A DNA stretch of 64,000 nt, from NCBI GenBank assembly GCA_965220695.1, contig OZ244838.1, positions 2,623,274 to 2,687,273 of the forward strand. The letters are read 5' to 3'. Shown here in pieces: positions 43,555-52,019 of this stretch. Made by a program: the position numbers and the translations under genes. Origin of the DNA: Vicinamibacterales bacterium. Lineage in GTDB: Bacteria > Acidobacteriota > Vicinamibacteria > Vicinamibacterales > UBA8438. Below the pieces are notes generated by a model, which saw only the letters and a program-made list of their open reading frames with translations, did no database searches and was not told the origin of the DNA. Numbering within the stretch: position 1 is the stretch's first letter; every line of letters begins with the position of its first letter.

Positions 43555-45639
43555 ATGCCCGACGATGAGGATCTGACCTGGGGAAAATCGACCGTCGACA
43601 CCGTCTGCCCGCTCGACTGCCCGGACACGTGCAGCCTGGAGGTGACGGTCGAGCGGGGCAAGATCGTCACCATCGACGGCTCGCACCGGCACGATGTCAC
43701 GAACGGGTATATCTGCGGCAAGGTCCGCCGCTACGGCGAACGCGTCTACGGCGACGCACGCCTGCTCCATCCGCTCATCCGCGACGGCAAACGGAGCGAC
43801 AGCTTCCAGACGGCCAGTTGGGATGATGCGCTCGGCCTCATCGCGTCGCGCATGGTCGACATTCGGGAGACCTGGGGCGCGGAAGCTATTCTCCCGTTTT
43901 CCTATGGCGGCTCGAACGGTCTGCTGACCCAGGACACCGCCGACGCCCGCCTGTTCCGGCAGTTCGGCACGTCACGGCTCGCACGCACCGTCTGCGCGAT
44001 GCCGACGAGCACCGCCAACCAGGCCCTGTACGGCAAGATGCCGGGCGTCACGTACCCCTCGTACCGCCACGCCCGGCTCATCGTCGTCTGGGGCGCCAAC
44101 CCGTCAAGTTCCGGGATCCATCTGGTCCCGTACATCAGGGAGGCGCAGCAGGCGGGGGCGGCGCTGGTGGTGATCGATCCGCGGCGCACCAACCTGGCGC
44201 GCCAGGCGGACATTCATCTGGCGCTCGAACCGGGCACCGACGTCGTGGTCGCGTTGGCCGTGCACCGCTATCTCTTCGAACACGATCTGGCCGACCAGGG
44301 ATTCCTGCGGCAGCACACCCACGGCGCGGACCGGCTGCGCGAGCGGGCGGCCGAGTGGACGATCGACCGCGCCGCCCACGTCGCCGGCATCGACCCGGAG
44401 CTGCTTGAGCACTTCGTCGAGATGTACGCCGACATCTCGCCCGCCGTCATCCGCTGCGGATGGGGCCTCGAACGCAACCGCAACGGCGGCAGCGCCGTCG
44501 CGGCGGTGCTCGCGCTGCCGGCGGTGGCGGGCAAGTTCGGTGTGCCGGGGGGCGGCTACTCGATGAGCAACGCCAACGCCTGGCGCCTGTCGCCGGAGAC
44601 CTGGATCGGCGCACCCGAGCCACCCACTCGTGTCGTCAACATGAATCACCTTGGCCGCGCGCTGCTCGAGTATCGCGACCCGCCGATCAAGATGTTGTTC
44701 GTCTACAACTGCAATCCGGCCGTGACGATGCCGAACCAGAACCGGGTGCTGGAAGGTCTGGCGCGCGACGATCTGTTCACCGTGGTGTTCGACCAGGTCA
44801 TGACCGACACTGCCGCGCTGGCCGATGTCGTGCTGCCGGCAACAACGTTCCTCGAGTCGTACGACGTGGCGCAGAGCTACGGGCTCACGAACCTGCAACT
44901 GGCCAAACCGGTGATCGAGGCCGTGGGCGAGGCGCGCCCGAACGTCGATGTGTTCGCCGATCTGGCGGCGCGTCTGGGACTCGAGACCGGCGACGACCAG
45001 ACTACCGACGTCGAAGCACTGCTCGAGCTGGCGAACGCGATGCCCGACCAGACCGGCCGCGACCTGCTGGACCGGGGCATCGTGACAGGTCCGGCCGACG
45101 GCGTCCCGACCCAGTTCGTGGACGAGTTCCCGCGCACCCCGGACGGCAAGGTGCAGCTATTTCCTGACGAGCTCGATCGCGAGAGTCCGACCGGACTGTA
45201 TACCTATCGGGCGGCGGCCGACGCGACCCGCTATCCGCTGATCCTGATCTCTCCCGCCACCGAAAAGACGATCAACTCGACCCTCGGCGAGTTGCGCCGG
45301 CGGGCCGCCAGCCTGCAGATGCACCCGGACGACGCCGTGCCCCGCGGGCTCTCGACCGGCGACACCGTGCGCATCTTCAACGCCCTGGGGGAAGTGCACT
45401 GTCCGGTCAACCTCAACGCCGACATGCGGCGGGGGACCGTGGGGCTGCCGAAAGGGCTGTGGCGGATGAGCACGCTCAACGGCGCGACGGTGAACGCTCT
45501 CGTGTCGGACGAGTTGACCGACATCGGTGGCGGCGCCGTGTTCAACGACACCCGGGTGGAGGTCGCCAGGGTCGTGACCGTGTCGCTCGACAGCGGCGTC
45601 ACCACCCCTGCGTCCGAGCCGGGCGGGCAGGTGCACTAG
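43555..45639 (+). CDS. molybdopterin-dependent oxidoreductase (MopB superfamily)
   Basis: N-terminal 4Fe-4S motif 'CPLDCPDTCSL...GYICGK'. C-terminal 'RIFNALGEV...' molydopterin dinucleotide-binding beta-barrel. Confidence 0.8.
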   Translation: MPDDEDLTWGKSTVDTVCPLDCPDTCSLEVTVERGKIVTIDGSHRHDVTNGYICGKVRRYGERVYGDARLLHPLIRDGKRSDSFQTASWDDALGLIASRMVDIRETWGAEAILPFSYGGSNGLLTQDTADARLFRQFGTSRLARTVCAMPTSTANQALYGKMPGVTYPSYRHARLIVVWGANPSSSGIHLVPYIREAQQAGAALVVIDPRRTNLARQADIHLALEPGTDVVVALAVHRYLFEHDLADQGFLRQHTHGADRLRERAAEWTIDRAAHVAGIDPELLEHFVEMYADISPAVIRCGWGLERNRNGGSAVAAVLALPAVAGKFGVPGGGYSMSNANAWRLSPETWIGAPEPPTRVVNMNHLGRALLEYRDPPIKMLFVYNCNPAVTMPNQNRVLEGLARDDLFTVVFDQVMTDTAALADVVLPATTFLESYDVAQSYGLTNLQLAKPVIEAVGEARPNVDVFADLAARLGLETGDDQTTDVEALLELANAMPDQTGRDLLDRGIVTGPADGVPTQFVDEFPRTPDGKVQLFPDELDRESPTGLYTYRAAADATRYPLILISPATEKTINSTLGELRRRAASLQMHPDDAVPRGLSTGDTVRIFNALGEVHCPVNLNADMRRGTVGLPKGLWRMSTLNGATVNALVSDELTDIGGGAVFNDTRVEVARVVTVSLDSGVTTPASEPGGQVH

Positions 45640-45717
45640 GTCCCACCGGGCGTGGTAGGATGCATCCGATGTCGGATGGTCCCGGACGGCGACGGACATG
45701 CGGGGTGACCAGTCATC

Positions 45718-46011
45718 ATGAGTGATTCCGATTCCCCCCGTACGGTGCAGTGCGTGAAGTTCGGGAAGAAGCTCCGGGCGCTGGACGAGCCGCCCTGGCC
45801 GGGTGAGTTGGGACGACGCATCTACGAGAGCGTGTCGGTCGACGCCTGGAAGCTCTGGGAAGAACGGATGAAGATGATCCTCAACGAGTACCGGCTGATG
45901 CCCTGGCAGAAGGAGGCCCAGGAGCTGGTGGCGAAACACATGGAGGACTTCTTCTTCGGCGAAGGGTCGGCGCTGCCGCCCGACTACGTACCGGAGCAGA
46001 GCAAGGCCTGA
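45718..46011 (+). CDS. yggX: Fe(2+)-trafficking / oxidative damage protection protein YggX
   Basis: 'VQCVKFGKKLRALDEPPWPGELGRRIYESVSVDAWKLWEERMKMILNEYRL' is the YggX family pattern. Confidence 0.8.
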   Translation: MSDSDSPRTVQCVKFGKKLRALDEPPWPGELGRRIYESVSVDAWKLWEERMKMILNEYRLMPWQKEAQELVAKHMEDFFFGEGSALPPDYVPEQSKA

Positions 46012-46034
46012 GACCCCCGCCCCGGCCGGCCTCG

Positions 46035-47297
46035 TCAGACCACCGGAATCGGCGCATCGATGACGATGCGCAGCGCCGCGTGCGCAGCGCGCAGCGCGTG
46101 CACCGCGTCGTCCGGCTCGGGCGACCGCGCGAATATGAACCCCAGATAGCTGCCGCCCTCCGGCAGCGGTTCGAGCCGCTGGTCCGGCTTGGCGGTCAGG
46201 AGCAGATCGACGACGCCGGGCACCGCCGCCGCAGCGGCCAGGTGCTCGGTGCGGCGATACGTGCCGGCGCGCGGGATCGGAATCATCATCACCGCCGAGG
46301 CGCCCGCCTCACGTCGATACCCACCGGTCGCGCCGCCGAGCGCGTCCCTCAGCAGCAGCTCTTCGAACGACGCGGCGGTTCCGTCATCCGCGCGGAACCA
46401 CAGCGCCCTGGCGCACAGCCCCCCGATCGGCCGCGCCGCCGCCTCGAGCACGAACACCCCGTCGTCGTTGACCCGGCACTCGACGTGCACCGGTCCCTGA
46501 CGCAGACCGAGGGCCGCGAGCGCGGAGGCCACCGCGTGTTCGATCCGCTGCTGCAGGTCGGTGGGGGCTCGGGACGGCGTCACGTAGATCGTCTCCTCGA
46601 AGAAGGGTCCGTCCAACGGATCGGGCTTGTCGAACAGGGCCACGACCCGCAGCCGGCCTTCGTCCACGAGGCCCTCCAAGGCATACTCACGGCCCGGTAT
46701 GAACTGCTCGACGACGACCCGGGACGACGCCGGGTCGCGGCGCTCCCGCAGTTCGCCGCGCGCCAGCAGGCGGCGCACACGCTCCAGTGCCGCCCGCAGC
46801 TCCGCGGGGTCGTCCGCGCGAATGACGCCGCGGCTGCCGGAGAGCGCCAGCGGCTTGACGACGCAGGGAAACGGCAGGTCAGGCGGCAGCGGCGCCGGCA
46901 CGGCGTCAAGCGACAACTCCCGGAACCAGGGGCACGGCAGCCGGGCCGCGGCCAGACAGCGCCGCGTCGCCAGCTTGTCGCCGCTCGCCCGCGCCGCGGC
47001 GGGCGGATGGCCGCGCACACCCAGCCGGTCGGCCGCCAGCGCCGCGAAGAGCGCCGGGCGGTCGCCTACGCCGATCACACCGTCAATCCGCTGGCGCCGC
47101 GCCAGGCGGTCGACCGCGGCCAGAAACCCGGGCTCGTCGTGGAAACGCAGCGGCAGGGCGCCGTCGCGCCAGGGGTCGTCAAGTTGATGGCAGCGGTCGG
47201 TGCCGAACACCAGCTCCACGCCCAGCCGGCCGGCCGCCTCGCCGAACGAGCGGGTCTGATACCCAGTCGTCATCGCGATCAGCAGCACACGCGGCAT
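46035..47297 (-). CDS. ATP-grasp domain protein (carboxylate-amine ligase-like)
   Basis: 420 aa. 'FPCVVKPLALSGSRGVIRADD' and 'VVVEQFIPGREYALEGLV' ATP-grasp core. Its first 11 codons lie within a 60-bp tandem repeat. Confidence 0.75.
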   Translation of the reverse strand: MPRVLLIAMTTGYQTRSFGEAAGRLGVELVFGTDRCHQLDDPWRDGALPLRFHDEPGFLAAVDRLARRQRIDGVIGVGDRPALFAALAADRLGVRGHPPAAARASGDKLATRRCLAAARLPCPWFRELSLDAVPAPLPPDLPFPCVVKPLALSGSRGVIRADDPAELRAALERVRRLLARGELRERRDPASSRVVVEQFIPGREYALEGLVDEGRLRVVALFDKPDPLDGPFFEETIYVTPSRAPTDLQQRIEHAVASALAALGLRQGPVHVECRVNDDGVFVLEAAARPIGGLCARALWFRADDGTAASFEELLLRDALGGATGGYRREAGASAVMMIPIPRAGTYRRTEHLAAAAAVPGVVDLLLTAKPDQRLEPLPEGGSYLGFIFARSPEPDDAVHALRAAHAALRIVIDAPIPVV

Positions 47298-47443
47298 TCA
47301 GGACGCCCTTCGGTCAGACCACGCAGTCGTCATAGCGATCAGCAGCACACGCGGCATTCAGGACGCCCTTCGGTCAGACCACGCAGTCGTCATCGCGATC
47401 AGCAGCACCCGTGGCATACAGGATATTCCGCGGTCAGACCAGA
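47264..47443. repeat. 60-bp tandem repeat x3 spanning the rSAM/ATP-grasp junction
   Basis: Units at 47264-47323, 47324-47383 and 47384-47443. Units 1 and 2 differ at 1 of 60 positions; unit 3 differs at about 9. Each unit carries an ATG plus 11 codons (MPRVLLIAMTT) and the upstream spacer. Confidence 0.9.
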
Positions 47444-48843
47444 GCGACCTGCTCCGGCACAGGCTCGGCTCAGCAGTACCACGGCTCGTTGAGAAACGGC
47501 ACCGCGGCGCGGGTCCGCCCGCCGCCGGTACGGGTTGGCGCGCGCCCGATGCGATCCGCCGTCAGGGCGCACAGCTCCTCGAAGACCACGGACCGCGACG
47601 CGTTGATGCGGCGACCGACCACGGCCGCGGCATCGGCCTGCAACTTGTCGACGCGCGGGTCCCGGTGTCTCCAGGGATAGACGAGACGCGTGGCGTCGAA
47701 CGGTCCGAGCTCGGCCCCCAGCGCGCCGCGGTCGAGGTCGAGCAACCGCGACCCGCGCGGGATCAGCAGCCGCAGCGTCAGTTGGATCGGCGCCACCTCC
47801 GCCACCAGGTCCAGCGCGTCGATGGTGCGCAGCAACTCGACATAGCCGTCGAGCGTCGTCCAGGGCGTGAACGGGATGAAGGTCGGCGCCAACGCCAGTC
47901 CGAGATCCCGGCAGCGGCCGACGACGAACTCGAAATCGGCGCGGGTATGCCCCTTGTCCAACAGGTCCAGCACGGCGTCATCGATCGACTCGACCGCCGT
48001 CACCACGAACAGGCAGCCGGTGTCCCGCAGTCTGGCCAGGTGCCGCTCGTGGCGCCTGAGATGCTCGACCTTGATCGTGACGTCATAGGTGACGGAGGGA
48101 AACTCGCGATCGAACGCGTCGACGAGCGCGACCGCGTGCCCCGGACCGTTGAAGAAATCGGGGTCGCCGAAAGTGATGTGCTGCGCCCCGGCCTCGACCT
48201 GCGCCCGCACGTCGGCCAGCACGACGTCCAGAGGAATCACGCGGAACCGGCCGCCGTAGACCGGCACCACCGGACAATGCCGGCACAGATGCCTGCAGCC
48301 CCGGCTGGCCTCGGTATAGCCGGCGACGCGCCGGGCGCCGTCGGGCGTCTGCAGGGACGCGTAGCGCGCCAGCGGCGGCAGCCCCGCGCGGTCCGGCGTA
48401 CGGAACCGCAGCCGCGGCACGCCCCCGACGCCCGCGGCGGGGACAGCGGGGGCACGCGGCCGGCCGCAGGCCAGGTCGAGCAGGTCCTGCTCGAACTCGC
48501 CCCCCAGCACATCCTGCACGCCAAGGTCGCGCAGCAACGTGGCGTTCAGCGGGGCGTACAGGCCATAGCCGCAGAGCCGCGCCGCCGGCGCCAGCGCACG
48601 CACCCGGCGAATCACCGGGACGGCGAGCCGCGTGGCGGTGTGCATCGGCAGATGAAACGCGATGAGGTCGCTCTCGAACGCCTCGGGGCGGAACGGTTCG
48701 CGAGACAGGTCGACGGTCGTGACCTGCACGCCCGCCTCGCGCAGCCAGGCCGCCGGCGACGCCAACCCGAACGGCTGGTGCCCCAACTCGTAGGTCGCCA
48801 CCAGCGTGGTCCGCCGGTTCGCGTCCGCCCCGGCCGTGGTCAC
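47434..48843 (-). CDS. radical SAM protein (B12-binding-like N-terminus) with a C-U-A-E-P tail; in-frame UGA at 47470-47472 is probably selenocysteine
   Basis: CxxxCxxC 'GCRHLCRHC'. GTG start overlaps the symporter TGA (GTGA). The ORF reads ...PFLNEPWYC-TGA-AEPVPEQVALV-TGA. A SECIS-like hairpin lies 13 nt downstream of the first TGA. Confidence 0.75.
47439..47457 (-). promoter_or_regulatory. candidate bacterial SECIS hairpin
   Basis: mRNA CCGGAGC-AGGUC-GCUCUGG: a 7-bp stem (one G.U pair) and a 5-nt loop containing GGU. It spans +13 to +31 after the UGA. Confidence 0.5.
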
Positions 48844-50270
48844 GCCCGCCCCACGTGCAGCGCGGCGACCTCCGCGTCGGTCTGCGGCGGGGTCAGCAGG
48901 CTGACGACGACCAGCGTGGCAATCGACAGGGTCAGCGCCGGATACGCCGTCTCGAGACCGAGCGGATAGGCAGCCACCCCATCGACGCCGCGCACCAGCC
49001 CCGCAATCTCCCAGATCAGCGTCGTGAGCATGCCGGCCAGGATCGACGCGACGCCGCCCCAGCGGGTCGCCCGGCGCCAGAGCAGCGCCCCCAGCAGCGC
49101 CGGCGTGATGCCGGCGCCGTACATGGTGTATGCCCACAGGGCCATCGCCAGGATGGACGGAAAGAAGCTGCCCGCGACGTAGCCGAGGCCCCCGAGCACG
49201 GCCACTGCCATCCGCGTGTAGATGATCACCTGGCGGTCCGTGGCGCCGGGGTTGAGGAACCGCTGGTAGACGTCGCGAATCAGGTTGGTCGACGGGGTCA
49301 GCAGGAAGCTGTTGGCGGTCGAGACGATGATGGCGGCCGCCCCGCACACCAGCACCACCCCCACGAACGGGGGCAGGACGTCGGTCGCCACCCGGATCAC
49401 GATCTCCTCGGACTGCGCAACGCTCAGGCCGGGCATGATCGTGCTGGCGAGGATGCCGGTCGAGTCGATCAACGTCTCGACCACGATGGTGCCGAGAATC
49501 CACGCCACGACCGCGGTGCGTGCGGCCCGTTCGTCGCGGGCGGAGAAGAACTTCTGGTACATGTTCGCTTCGCCGAGCAGCAGGAACATCGTCGGCAGAA
49601 AGAGCGCCAGCGACGCCTGCGGTCCGAGCGTCCCGAACAGCGAGACCTGATCGGGCCGCAGCGCCGCCACGGACGCACCCACGCCGCCGGCGTCCCCGAC
49701 CATGAACAGGACCGCCAGCATCACGCCGACCGTCATCAGAATGCCATTCCCCACGTCGAGATAGGCAATCGACAGCATGCCGGCCAGCGCCGTGAACGCC
49801 ACACAGAACATCATCGTGAAGAGCGCGCCGGTGTCGGGGTCCACGCCCGCGACCGCCGCCAGCAGGCGCCCGCCGCCGCGGAACTGGTAGGCGGCGATGG
49901 TGGCGTAGGCCAGCACCGTCGTCACGGTGCCGAGCACCCGCGCGGCCGGACCGTAGCGCAGCTCCAGAATGTCAGGCACCGTGTACTGTGCGATGCGCCG
50001 CACGCGGGGCGCGATGAAGAAGACGAGGGCAATCCCCACCCAGGCGCCCGCCGACTGCCAGAGCGCCGGAAACCCGGCGCGATACCCCAGCCCGGCCCCG
50101 GCGAACAGACTGCCCGACCCGATCCAGGTGGCCAGCAGCGTGAACACGAGCACACGCGCCGGCAGCGTGCGGCCGGCGACGAGGAAGTCGTCACTGGTCT
50201 TGACACGCCGGCTGCGGTACAAGCTGACCAGCACCAGGATGGACAGATAGAGGAGGACCGCGGTGCGCAT
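48840..50270 (-). CDS. sodium:solute symporter (SSS family)
   Basis: 476 aa with about 13 TM segments. 'DDFLVAGRTLP......LLATWIGSGSLFG.AGLGY' SSS signature. Confidence 0.85.
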   Translation of the reverse strand: MRTAVLLYLSILVLVSLYRSRRVKTSDDFLVAGRTLPARVLVFTLLATWIGSGSLFAGAGLGYRAGFPALWQSAGAWVGIALVFFIAPRVRRIAQYTVPDILELRYGPAARVLGTVTTVLAYATIAAYQFRGGGRLLAAVAGVDPDTGALFTMMFCVAFTALAGMLSIAYLDVGNGILMTVGVMLAVLFMVGDAGGVGASVAALRPDQVSLFGTLGPQASLALFLPTMFLLLGEANMYQKFFSARDERAARTAVVAWILGTIVVETLIDSTGILASTIMPGLSVAQSEEIVIRVATDVLPPFVGVVLVCGAAAIIVSTANSFLLTPSTNLIRDVYQRFLNPGATDRQVIIYTRMAVAVLGGLGYVAGSFFPSILAMALWAYTMYGAGITPALLGALLWRRATRWGGVASILAGMLTTLIWEIAGLVRGVDGVAAYPLGLETAYPALTLSIATLVVVSLLTPPQTDAEVAALHVGRA

Positions 50271-50425
50271 GCTGGTCTCGTTGTGCGCCTGAGTCGGTGT
50301 CGCGCCGGGCCGTGGCCGAACCGGGAGACGCCGACACGGCGCGCCCGTCGAACTCCGACATCATACCGGCATCCGCCGCCGCCCGTGAACGATCGGAATC
50401 GACCGGCGTGCCGCTGGCGGGGAAC

Positions 50426-50450
50426 GGGCGCCCACAAGGGGCGCCCCTAC
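50426..50450 (+). repeat. variant REP-like hairpin GGGCGCCCACAAGGGGCGCCCCTAC
   Basis: Same 25-nt unit as at 15046, with AA>GC and TT>GC changes that preserve the 8-bp stem. Confidence 0.7.
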
Positions 50451-50537
50451 ACGATCCGCGGTTGATCGGGGTGGTCCGGTCGACCCGGGCGCCCCCGCGC
50501 CACGGCGTGGCGCCTACCCAATATGCCTCCGCGCCCT

Positions 50538-50562
50538 GTAGGGGCAACCCTTGTGGTTGCCC
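50538..50562 (-). repeat. REP-like hairpin unit, inverted copy
   Basis: GTAGGGGCAACCCTTGTGGTTGCCC is the exact reverse complement of the unit at 15046. It lies 9 nt beyond the stop of the yvcK-like gene. Confidence 0.8.
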
Positions 50563-50570
50563 GGTGCCGG

Positions 50571-51543
50571 CTAACCGCCGGCCAGCAGGCGTTTCGCCAG
50601 CACCCCCCAGACGGCATAGGCCAGCCGCCGTCGGGCGTGACGGGCGAACCCCCCTTGCCAGAACTCGCCGGTCACGACCTCGCAGCCCTCCGGCATGGCA
50701 CCCACGGGCAGCGGTTCCTTGTGCTCGCCGGCGTAGCGCGCCAGCGCCTCTTCACCCGGGTGTCCGGTGTTGACGATCACGACGTCGACCGGCCGGCCTA
50801 TCGCCTCGCCGATGCGCGAGACCGCGGTCGCCGCGGTGAAGCCCTGCATGCCGCGTCCCTCGGTGAGCAGGTTGGTCACCAGCACGATCGGGCCGCGCAC
50901 CGCGACCATGGCGTCACGCACCCCGCGCGGCAGGAAGATCGGCACCAGACTCGTATAGAAACTGCCCGGCCCGATGATGCAGGCGTCGAATCGGGGGATG
51001 GCGTCGAGGGCCGCGGGATGGATACTGACCTCCGGTTCGAGCCAGATCCGGTTGATCCGGCGCCCCTGACTCTGCTCGACGTCGACCTCCACCTCGCCGC
51101 GGGTCGTCGACCCGTCCTGATACTCGGCGCACACCGTCGCCTGCTCGACACTGATCGGCCAGACCCGCCCGACACAGTCGAGCAGCGTCCGCAACCCGTC
51201 CACCGCCGCCAGGAAATCGCCGCTGTACTGCTCCATCATCGACAGCAGCAGGTTGCCGCCGGTATGTCCACCGAGCCGGTCATGCTCGAAGCCGGACAGG
51301 CGTGTCAGCAGAATCCGGCGCGCCTCCGTTTCGTTGCGCGCGAGCGCCAGTGCGCACCTGAGCACGTCACCCGGCGGCAGCACGCCGAGCTGGTCCCGCA
51401 GCACCCCGGAACTGCCGCCGCTGTCGAACATCGTGACGACGGCATTCAGCCGCAACCAGGGATTCTGCTTGAGCCCGCCCAGCACGCTGGGCAGCCCGGT
51501 GCCGCCGCCGAAACAGCCGATGTTCAACTGCCGCAAGCGCATC
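50571..51543 (-). CDS. YvcK/UPF0052 (CofD-like) family protein
   Basis: Start MRLRQLNIGCFGGGTGLPSVLGGLK. 'GPGSFYTSL.P' motif. The 140-aa N-terminal extension in the track ORF is low-complexity and unlikely to be coding. Confidence 0.75.
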
Positions 51544-52019
51544 GCCGCATTGTCCCGGATCTTGACCGTCACGATCCAGACGGGGGCAGCCGGTGGAGAA
51601 GCTGCCCGTATCAAGGGCAAGGGCTCGGACCTCGCCGCGTCTGCAGGAGGAATGTCGACTTGGGGAAGGACGAGCAGACGGAGGCGGCGGAGCGTGCGCG
51701 GAGGGCGACTCGTGGCCGCTCTCGGCGGGACGGCCGTTGCGGGTGCGTGATGGATGCCGCGCGGTCCGGTCTGTCCGGCCGGAGGCGTCAGAACCCGAGC
51801 GAGAGGGCGACTCCCCGGCGCCCGCGCGACAGCAGCGGCGAGACGGTCAGGCGTCGTGCGGAACCGGTTGCGCGATAGATGAGACGCTGTCCCTGGATCT
51901 TGTCGTCGACGATAGCGCCTACGAGTGCACCTTGGAGGCCACCTGACGTTAAGACCCAGATCCACGCGCCAAAGTCCGCGTCGTCACTATCACTCCGGGC
52001 GCATCGACTGTCTTGAACG

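Follow-up and report, generated by a model that had tools for sequence, protein, structure and literature searches.

A copy-number-variable tandem duplication across the boundary of a radical SAM selenoprotein gene and an ATP-grasp ligase gene in a narrow clade of Vicinamibacteria

Genes at the locus

The window, by which we mean the whole stretch of 64,000 nt from a Vicinamibacterales bacterium that was analyzed here, carries on its minus strand, in this order, genes for a CofD-like protein, a sodium:solute symporter, a radical SAM (rSAM) protein, and an ATP-grasp enzyme (Table 1). The order symporter, rSAM, ATP-grasp recurs in relatives, and the rSAM/ATP-grasp pair is kept in approximately 55 of 84 loci; the two genes are probably co-transcribed. 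Heptamer-type repeats are seen in the spacer between them in many other lineages. Nearly all homologs of the ATP-grasp protein (120 matches listed) are about 420 residues long and align with it at 100% coverage from residue 1; hence, we take the last of the three in-frame ATGs at the head of the gene, at 47297, to be its true start.

The mechanical listing of open reading frames closes the upstream rSAM gene at the TGA 47472-47470. In its homologs, TGA or TGC/TGT occupies the same codon, and reading through it yields the C-terminus ...NEPWYC-U-AEPVPEQVALV, directly followed by a stop that falls within the first of several copies of the sequence GGTCTGACC. The read-through protein scores 589.7 bits against the profile NF040546 (cut-off 500), with its residues 14-467 matched to profile positions 3-467 of 468, and contains the radical SAM CxxxCxxC motif as CRHLCRHC; against NF040542, the profile of the related arsinothricin enzyme ArsL, it reaches 239 bits, below the cut-off of 450. 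On the strength of this profile match, the upstream gene is a full-length member of the NF040546 family of "CUAEP/CCAEP-tail radical SAM (seleno)proteins", with a selenocysteine (Sec) UGA and a predicted SECIS element. The initial annotation had placed the final codons of the rSAM gene and its stop in GGTCTGACC; this holds only with Sec encoded by the TGA 47472-47470, as the NF040546 match indicates. A 2022 preprint by Haft describes the family as an uncharacterized selenoprotein with a CU motif.

In the UGA-type genes of the family, a hairpin of the form CAGAGC, loop AGGUN, GCUCUG, with a stem of 6-8 bp, begins approximately 14-17 nt past the UGA, and the 8-bp stem of the window begins 14 nt past it. 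Covariation across 19 loci supports this predicted fold: 92% of the cells are paired, against approximately 45% when the partner strand is slid, 12 double changes are present, and none of 500 shuffles reaches the observed value. Further, the tail AEPxxEQVAL[VIL] is near-invariant in the Sec-type genes and variable in the Cys-type genes, which fits a constraint acting at the RNA level. The last 3 nt of this hairpin overlap the first unit of the repeat described below.

Table 1. Positions of genes, signals and repeat units at the locus (window coordinates)
Feature	Position	Strand	Description
Sodium:solute symporter gene	48840..50270	-	NCBIfam TIGR00813 and PutP/PanF-like matches; heads the same-strand run; 4-nt overlap of its stop with the rSAM start
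CUAEP-tail radical SAM selenoprotein gene	47434..48843	-	Starts with GTG at 48843; 469 codons with Sec included; true stop TGA 47436-47434
In-frame UGA, read as selenocysteine	47470..47472	-	U position of CUAEP; TGA or TGC/TGT here in homologs
SECIS hairpin (predicted)	47438..47458	-	Stem GCCGGAGC/GCUCUGGU, 8 bp, loop AGGUC; from fold prediction and covariation
Repeat unit 1 (original junction)	47381..47440	-	GGTCTGACC with rSAM stop context, divergent spacer CGCGGAATATCCTGT, first ATG (47417) and 11 ATP-grasp-like codons
Repeat unit 2	47321..47380	-	GGTCTGACC copy, spacer GAAGGGCGTCCTGA with AAGGG Shine-Dalgarno-like motif, second ATG (47357)
Repeat unit 3	47261..47320	-	Spacer as in unit 2, then the real ATP-grasp start ATG 47297
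Mini-ORF 1	47358..47417	-	MPRVLLIAMTTAWSDRRAS and TGA
Mini-ORF 2	47298..47357	-	MPRVLLIAMTTAWSDRRAS and TGA, abutting the real ATG
ATP-grasp enzyme gene	46035..47297	-	L-amino-acid-ligase type, 420 aa; Pfam ATP-grasp_4, LAL_C2, ATPgrasp_N

Anatomy of the repeat array

The minus strand from 47440 to 47261 is made up of three 60-nt units arranged head to tail, each of which contains GGTCTGACC, a 16-nt spacer (counted from the TGA within GGTCTGACC, that is, CCG and 13 further bases), and a start codon with 11 codons reading MPRVLLIAMTT. Tandem Repeats Finder (TRF) reports a single array at 47264-47423, with a period of 60, 2.7 copies, 95% matches, and a score of 292. No other tandem repeat of the window comes close to this score, and just one more reaches at least 60. 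The sequence of 47261-47443 thus bears out the initial observation that the rSAM end, the spacer, and the ATP-grasp start are triplicated with their stops and starts in one frame. With the unit boundaries adopted in that annotation, units 1 and 2 differ by a single base, as it had stated, and unit 3 differs by 11-12 bases rather than the "about 9" given there.

The ATGs at 47417, 47357, and 47297 share a common frame, and the first two open identical ORFs, MPRVLLIAMTTAWSDRRAS, each of which ends in a TGA that directly adjoins the following ATG (junctions at 47360-47355 and 47300-47295). This is the layout of termination-reinitiation, with every stop set against the next start, on what would be a shared transcript. 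The first start lies 16 nt after the rSAM stop; the spacer of unit 1 has no clear Shine-Dalgarno motif, and the later units keep an AAGGG 8 nt before their ATG. The homology between the units stops at codon 12 of the ATP-grasp gene, which is GGG in unit 3 and GCG in the copies.

Recovery of the array in independent assemblies

Clustering at 90% identity places the window ATP-grasp protein in a group of 19 sequences, for seven of which the contigs were read. The array is present in every assembly read from this cluster at 90% identity or above, with the same divergent first spacer (CGCGGAATATCC...). Four exact 60-nt units are found in long-read contigs of 66x, 70x, and 102x coverage and in several short-read contigs from different samples, and these four-unit arrays come in three sequence variants (the L086, L096, and L100 types). 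The window itself has three units, a copy number that rests on its assembly and on an error-rich, low-coverage contig (L085) that likewise has three copies of the start.

One of the possibilities raised at the outset was that the repeat, or the copy number in the window, arose in assembly. The region is indeed prone to errors: gaps of 100 N interrupt the array in the short-read scaffolds L088, L089, and L095, and the low-coverage long-read contigs L001 (8x), L085 (21x), and L099 (5x) show indels within it. Several apparent peculiarities dissolve accordingly. The five or six units suggested by gaps of 290-327 nt in L088, L089, and L095 are explained by the 100-N scaffold gaps; a frameshift in unit 3 of L001, which could be taken for decay of a mini-ORF, is an error of 8x coverage, as evidenced by the 70x contig L100; and a 462-residue "fused" protein in the databases (P0127) is spurious, its source contig being the indel-ridden one at 21x. 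Nevertheless, both sequencing technologies gave identical four-unit arrays, independently and from many samples, including in the three long-read contigs of high coverage, and the diagnostic differences between the units give them an unambiguous order. Taken with the three start copies in the window-like L085, this leads us to reject an assembly artifact as the source of the array itself, and makes one very unlikely overall.

Age, distribution, and copy-number change

Comparison of orthologous loci, which had been proposed as a check, placed the array in close relatives among the Vicinamibacteria (the cluster at 90% identity or above), and a single junction in those at 75% or less, namely at 75% (L002-L004) and at approximately 70% identity (L005 and L006). 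In 83 other loci, the opening 33 nt of the gene were not found again upstream at up to 8 mismatches, and a scan of JGI metagenomes for the duplication-junction pattern gave no match; the clade is represented only in ENA/NCBI assemblies. Among the GTDB species representatives there is no relative closer than 70% identity. The clade is one small group of soil and water Acidobacteriota. Given the single copy at 75% identity and the array throughout the cluster, the first duplication can be dated between the two splits: on these comparisons, it would have occurred after the separation from the 75% lineage and before the divergence within the clade (approximately 9% at the protein level).

The divergent first unit is common to all lineages that bear the array, and the copy number subsequently came to be three or four, in line with the initial proposal of at least two duplication events. 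The spacers are alike within a genome and different between genomes, with CGTCC occurring twice in the window and TGTCC three times in L096, and in L001 and L100 the blocks have a period of approximately 119-120 nt (119 by TRF, in the low-coverage L001). Judging from these patterns, the units of the array are evolving in concert.

Two simple ideas about the array were considered and set aside. A CTGG microhomology does not suffice as its origin, as a plain crossover there would leave a junction about 4 nt shorter than the one observed, ACGACTG-CGT-GGTCTGACC. Neither does the rSAM/ATP-grasp spacer appear to be a special hotspot for repeats, since repeats of the heptamer type are common elsewhere too, with 27 arrays lying at this junction against 127 in other intergenic spacers of the same loci.

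Substitution patterns in the mini-ORFs

We counted by hand the substitutions in 11 pseudo-units from four lineages. The 11 N-terminal codons, which copy the start of the real gene, show approximately 6 synonymous changes, 1 non-synonymous change (L to P), and no nonsense change. The 8 tail codons show approximately 2 synonymous and 5 non-synonymous changes (D>E, D>G, S>P, A>V, S>A), and 1 nonsense change, a TGG>TGA at codon 13 of unit 3 that is seen in two lineages and lies 21 nt before the next start. Among close strains, the tail AWSDRRAS thus varies as AWSERRAS, AWPDRRVS, AWSGRRVS, or AWSDRRVA, or is lost where the ORF is cut to 12 codons. As this tail is the part specific to the mini-peptides, its variability indicates that it evolves as if unconstrained.

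The N-terminal codons of the pseudo-units, which vary almost only synonymously, are a point against regarding the mini-ORFs as by-products. Their conservation is, though, the pattern that would be expected from sequence exchange with the real start, which is under selection. Likewise, in no pseudo-unit of the high-coverage assemblies has the start codon (ATG or GTG), the TGA set against the following start, or the exact length of 60 nt been lost. Youth alone may not account for such retention, which could point to selection for a translated relay; it is weak evidence for this, because the copies are just 5-10% diverged and would have inherited these features automatically. No small ORF is conserved at the rSAM/ATP-grasp junction in 83 other loci, and the mini-ORFs are absent from all loci outside the cluster at 90% identity or above.

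Alternative readings of the mini-ORFs

The position of short ORFs containing T, T, S, and D next to genes for a radical SAM protein and an ATP-grasp enzyme recalls clusters for ribosomally synthesized, modified peptides (RiPPs), and it had been suggested that the mini-ORFs encode 19-residue precursors acted on by the two neighboring enzymes. As in graspetide/microviridin clusters with radical SAM maturases, short ORFs do adjoin such genes here. However, the first 11 residues of the peptide are the N-terminal strand of the enzyme itself, its tail is altered by non-synonymous changes or truncated among close strains, and the "precursor" is absent from nearly all homologous loci, including those that keep the gene pair. 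Moreover, LAL_C2 and ATPgrasp_N are domains of small-molecule amino-acid ligases, an L-amino-acid-ligase architecture that differs from that of the graspetide enzymes, and the rSAM protein is related to ArsL, itself a small-molecule enzyme. This reading is largely refuted already, and we regard it as highly improbable. An even smaller chance attaches to the suggestion that the UGAs between the units are decoded as Sec or otherwise read through, which would furnish the ATP-grasp enzyme with one or two N-terminal extensions of 20 residues each. In its favor, the gene next upstream appears to be one in which the organism decodes UGA as Sec, and all units share one frame. Bacterial Sec insertion requires a SECIS hairpin just downstream of the UGA. 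Here, the CAGAGC-AGGUN-GCUCUG hairpin lies outside the repeat unit, which copies only its last 3 nt, and the fold prediction shows no local GGU-loop hairpin following the UGAs of the mini-ORFs. Two lineages have the further in-frame TGA in unit 3, nearly all of the homologs listed begin at the position of the third ATG, and the sole "fusion" of 462 residues is the spurious P0127.

Among the regulatory readings, leader-peptide attenuation, which had also been raised, is not supported by the sequence: neither a terminator-like site nor a promoter was found in 46900-47800, an Rfam search returned no leader family or other match, the 241-nt region folds no better than its shuffles (z = 0.18), and conservation does not extend beyond the young clade. 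A different proposal is that the array acts as a chain of upstream ORFs, in which termination at each UGA and reinitiation at the abutting AUG would pass translation on to the ATP-grasp gene, with ribosomes either arriving after completing the rSAM gene or loading at each AAGGG motif, and with the copy number tuning the ratio of ATP-grasp to rSAM. This accords with the direct adjacency of TGA and ATG or GTG in all units, with the retention of ATG or GTG in 11 of 11 pseudo-units (both of the start-codon changes seen being ATG to GTG), with the exact 60-nt period in all high-coverage assemblies, and with the short distance from the rSAM stop to the first start. Conversely, these features come automatically with copies so little diverged; the premature TGA in unit 3 of two lineages interrupts the chain 21 nt before the next start; the Shine-Dalgarno-like motif has been lost in the first unit; no attenuator-like structure is present; and most related loci join the two genes through spacers of -4 to 269 nt that are unrelated in sequence and without such mini-ORFs. 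We therefore consider a functional chain unlikely, though the most probable of the alternatives. Its more specific form, in which a selected, copy-number-tunable relay would carry ribosomes to the ATP-grasp gene from the selenoprotein gene, whose translation hinges on selenium being available at the Sec codon, such that output tracks Sec insertion and three versus four units represent different coupling strengths, is on the present sequence comparisons a decidedly long shot.

A gene-boundary duplication with mini-ORFs as probable by-products

Hence, we posit that the array is a real, young, copy-number-variable tandem duplication of a gene boundary, and that the mini-ORFs are probably its by-products. 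According to this proposal, a 60-nt unit, which takes in the final 3 nt of the SECIS stem, the rSAM stop, the 16-nt spacer, and the ATP-grasp gene up to codon 11-12, would have been duplicated once in the ancestor of a narrow clade of Vicinamibacteria. Later gain and loss of units, together with homogenization by unequal recombination or gene conversion, would then have resulted in three units in the window and four in its sister lineages. Because a period of 60 is divisible by three and, in this clade, a TGA closes the spacer right before the ATG, the upstream copies form closed mini-ORFs of up to 19 codons and add no extension to the enzyme. That the mini-ORFs close themselves is probably the reason why the duplication was tolerated, presumably as a neutral change. 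The enzyme itself would be made from the last ATG, which has its own AAGGG Shine-Dalgarno-like motif, and the mini-ORFs, if they are translated, might at most serve as decoy or relay upstream ORFs.

The closest known kind of element is the ordinary bacterial variable-number tandem repeat (VNTR) or tandem duplication. Like VNTRs of the minisatellite type, the array has head-to-tail units of tens of bases whose number varies between strains (three versus four) next to single-copy outgroups, is subject to homogenization, and is confined to a narrow clade. It differs from them in that its unit spans a gene boundary, taking in a stop context, a ribosome-binding spacer, a start, and 11 genuine codons; this span is its special feature. 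The likeness to upstream ORFs, leader peptides, and termination-reinitiation sites with UGA-AUG, AUGA, or UGAUG junctions is one of layout only, in that short same-strand ORFs with stops abutting starts lie in an apparent operon. In contrast to these, the array has no attenuator structure, regulatory codon run, or wider conservation, and its peptide is a copy of the N-terminus of the downstream gene product. Within the NF040546 family, too, the other members examined are without a duplication of the junction.

Conclusions

We describe a clean natural case of a duplicated gene boundary that is probably tolerated thanks to an in-frame stop in the spacer. The array matters mainly for annotation and assembly: it breaks short-read scaffolds, leaving N gaps, and in long-read assemblies of low coverage yields proteins that are falsely fused or truncated, and beside it lies an rSAM selenoprotein gene that every public gene call ends at the Sec codon. 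It could also serve as a VNTR strain marker for this clade of Vicinamibacteria. Should the relay after all be real, it would constitute an unusual, evolvable coupling of the expression of a partner enzyme to the completion of a selenoprotein. Separately from the array, the gene pair that it joins is the more interesting biology: the genes for an ArsL-like radical SAM protein with a CU motif, an L-amino-acid ligase, and a solute symporter stand side by side, which hints at an unknown pathway for a small-molecule amino acid or dipeptide.

Annotation of the radical SAM gene and its C-terminal tail

In all public gene calls the selenocysteine-encoding UGA is taken as the stop of the radical SAM (rSAM) gene, giving products of 454-457 aa (the window and the homologous loci L001, L002 and L085-L102); the database entries for the rSAM proteins lack the last 12 residues, the U of the CUAEP motif among them. 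Common to the members of the Sec type is a small, compact SECIS, with an AGGUN loop on a stem of 6-8 bp (alignment A1), and their tail, AEPxxEQVAL[VIL], seems to be held fixed by the coding constraint that this element imposes. The tails of the Cys-type (CCAEP) members vary, and are sometimes shorter or longer.

Features of the locus in the window
Feature	Position	Strand	Remark
CofD-like	50571-51965	-
Sodium:solute symporter	48840-50270	-
rSAM gene	47434-48843	-	product of 469 aa
SECIS	47438-47458	-	alignment A1
Antisense ORF	46080-47492	+	470 aa; passes through ATP-grasp gene and array
YggX/Iron_traffic protein	45718-46011	+
Molybdopterin oxidoreductase	43555-45639	+

Repeats and their consequences for the databases

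The array of 60-nt units at the rSAM/ATP-grasp junction produces database artefacts at these loci: a 462-aa 'fused' ATP-grasp protein (P0127, L085 3001-4389) from an indel-ridden 21x contig, a gene split in two (P0133 and P0128) on the 5x contig L099, and scaffold gaps of 100 N in the short-read assemblies L088, L089 and L095. The antisense ORF, which contains the repeated peptide ...RHSGRPSVRPRSRH..., was rejected as a gene, being a typical antisense frame of high-GC DNA.

The heptamer GGUCUGA at the rSAM stop (47434-47440, minus strand) could pair over its full length with UCAGACC, its perfect reverse complement, which lies in ATP-grasp codons 13-15 (47253-47259, minus strand); the potential 7-bp helix would enclose the spacer and the ATP-grasp start. 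Since locus L002 carries GGUGUGA, where this pairing is not kept, the complementarity probably reflects chance.

Lineage-specific short tandem repeats, with units mostly of 7-8 nt and often formed of two inverted blocks (e.g. GGGATCC...CCGGATC or GGATGAA...CTTCATCC), occur in intergenic spacers of many Acidobacteriota loci. They are found in the rSAM/ATP-grasp spacers of L006, L010, L015, L016, L026, L047, L049, L059, L062, L066 and L072, and also in other spacers of those same loci; with 27 such arrays at the junction as against 127 elsewhere, they are not junction-specific.

Relatives and gene neighborhood

The typically acidobacterial rSAM/ATP-grasp locus is present, at 57-58% identity, in two MAGs titled 'uncultured Bifidobacteriaceae bacterium' (L015, CAZNOC010000003.1; L025, CAZCEL010000249.1), whose taxonomic label or binning looks wrong. 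The neighborhood at 43555-52000 is kept in relatives: the CofD-like, symporter, CUAEP rSAM and LAL-type ATP-grasp genes share one strand, and the YggX/Iron_traffic and molybdopterin oxidoreductase genes are on the opposite one. The grouping of an rSAM enzyme resembling the arsinothricin enzyme ArsL with a transporter and an amino-acid ligase hints at an uncharacterized pathway for an amino-acid or dipeptide metabolite.
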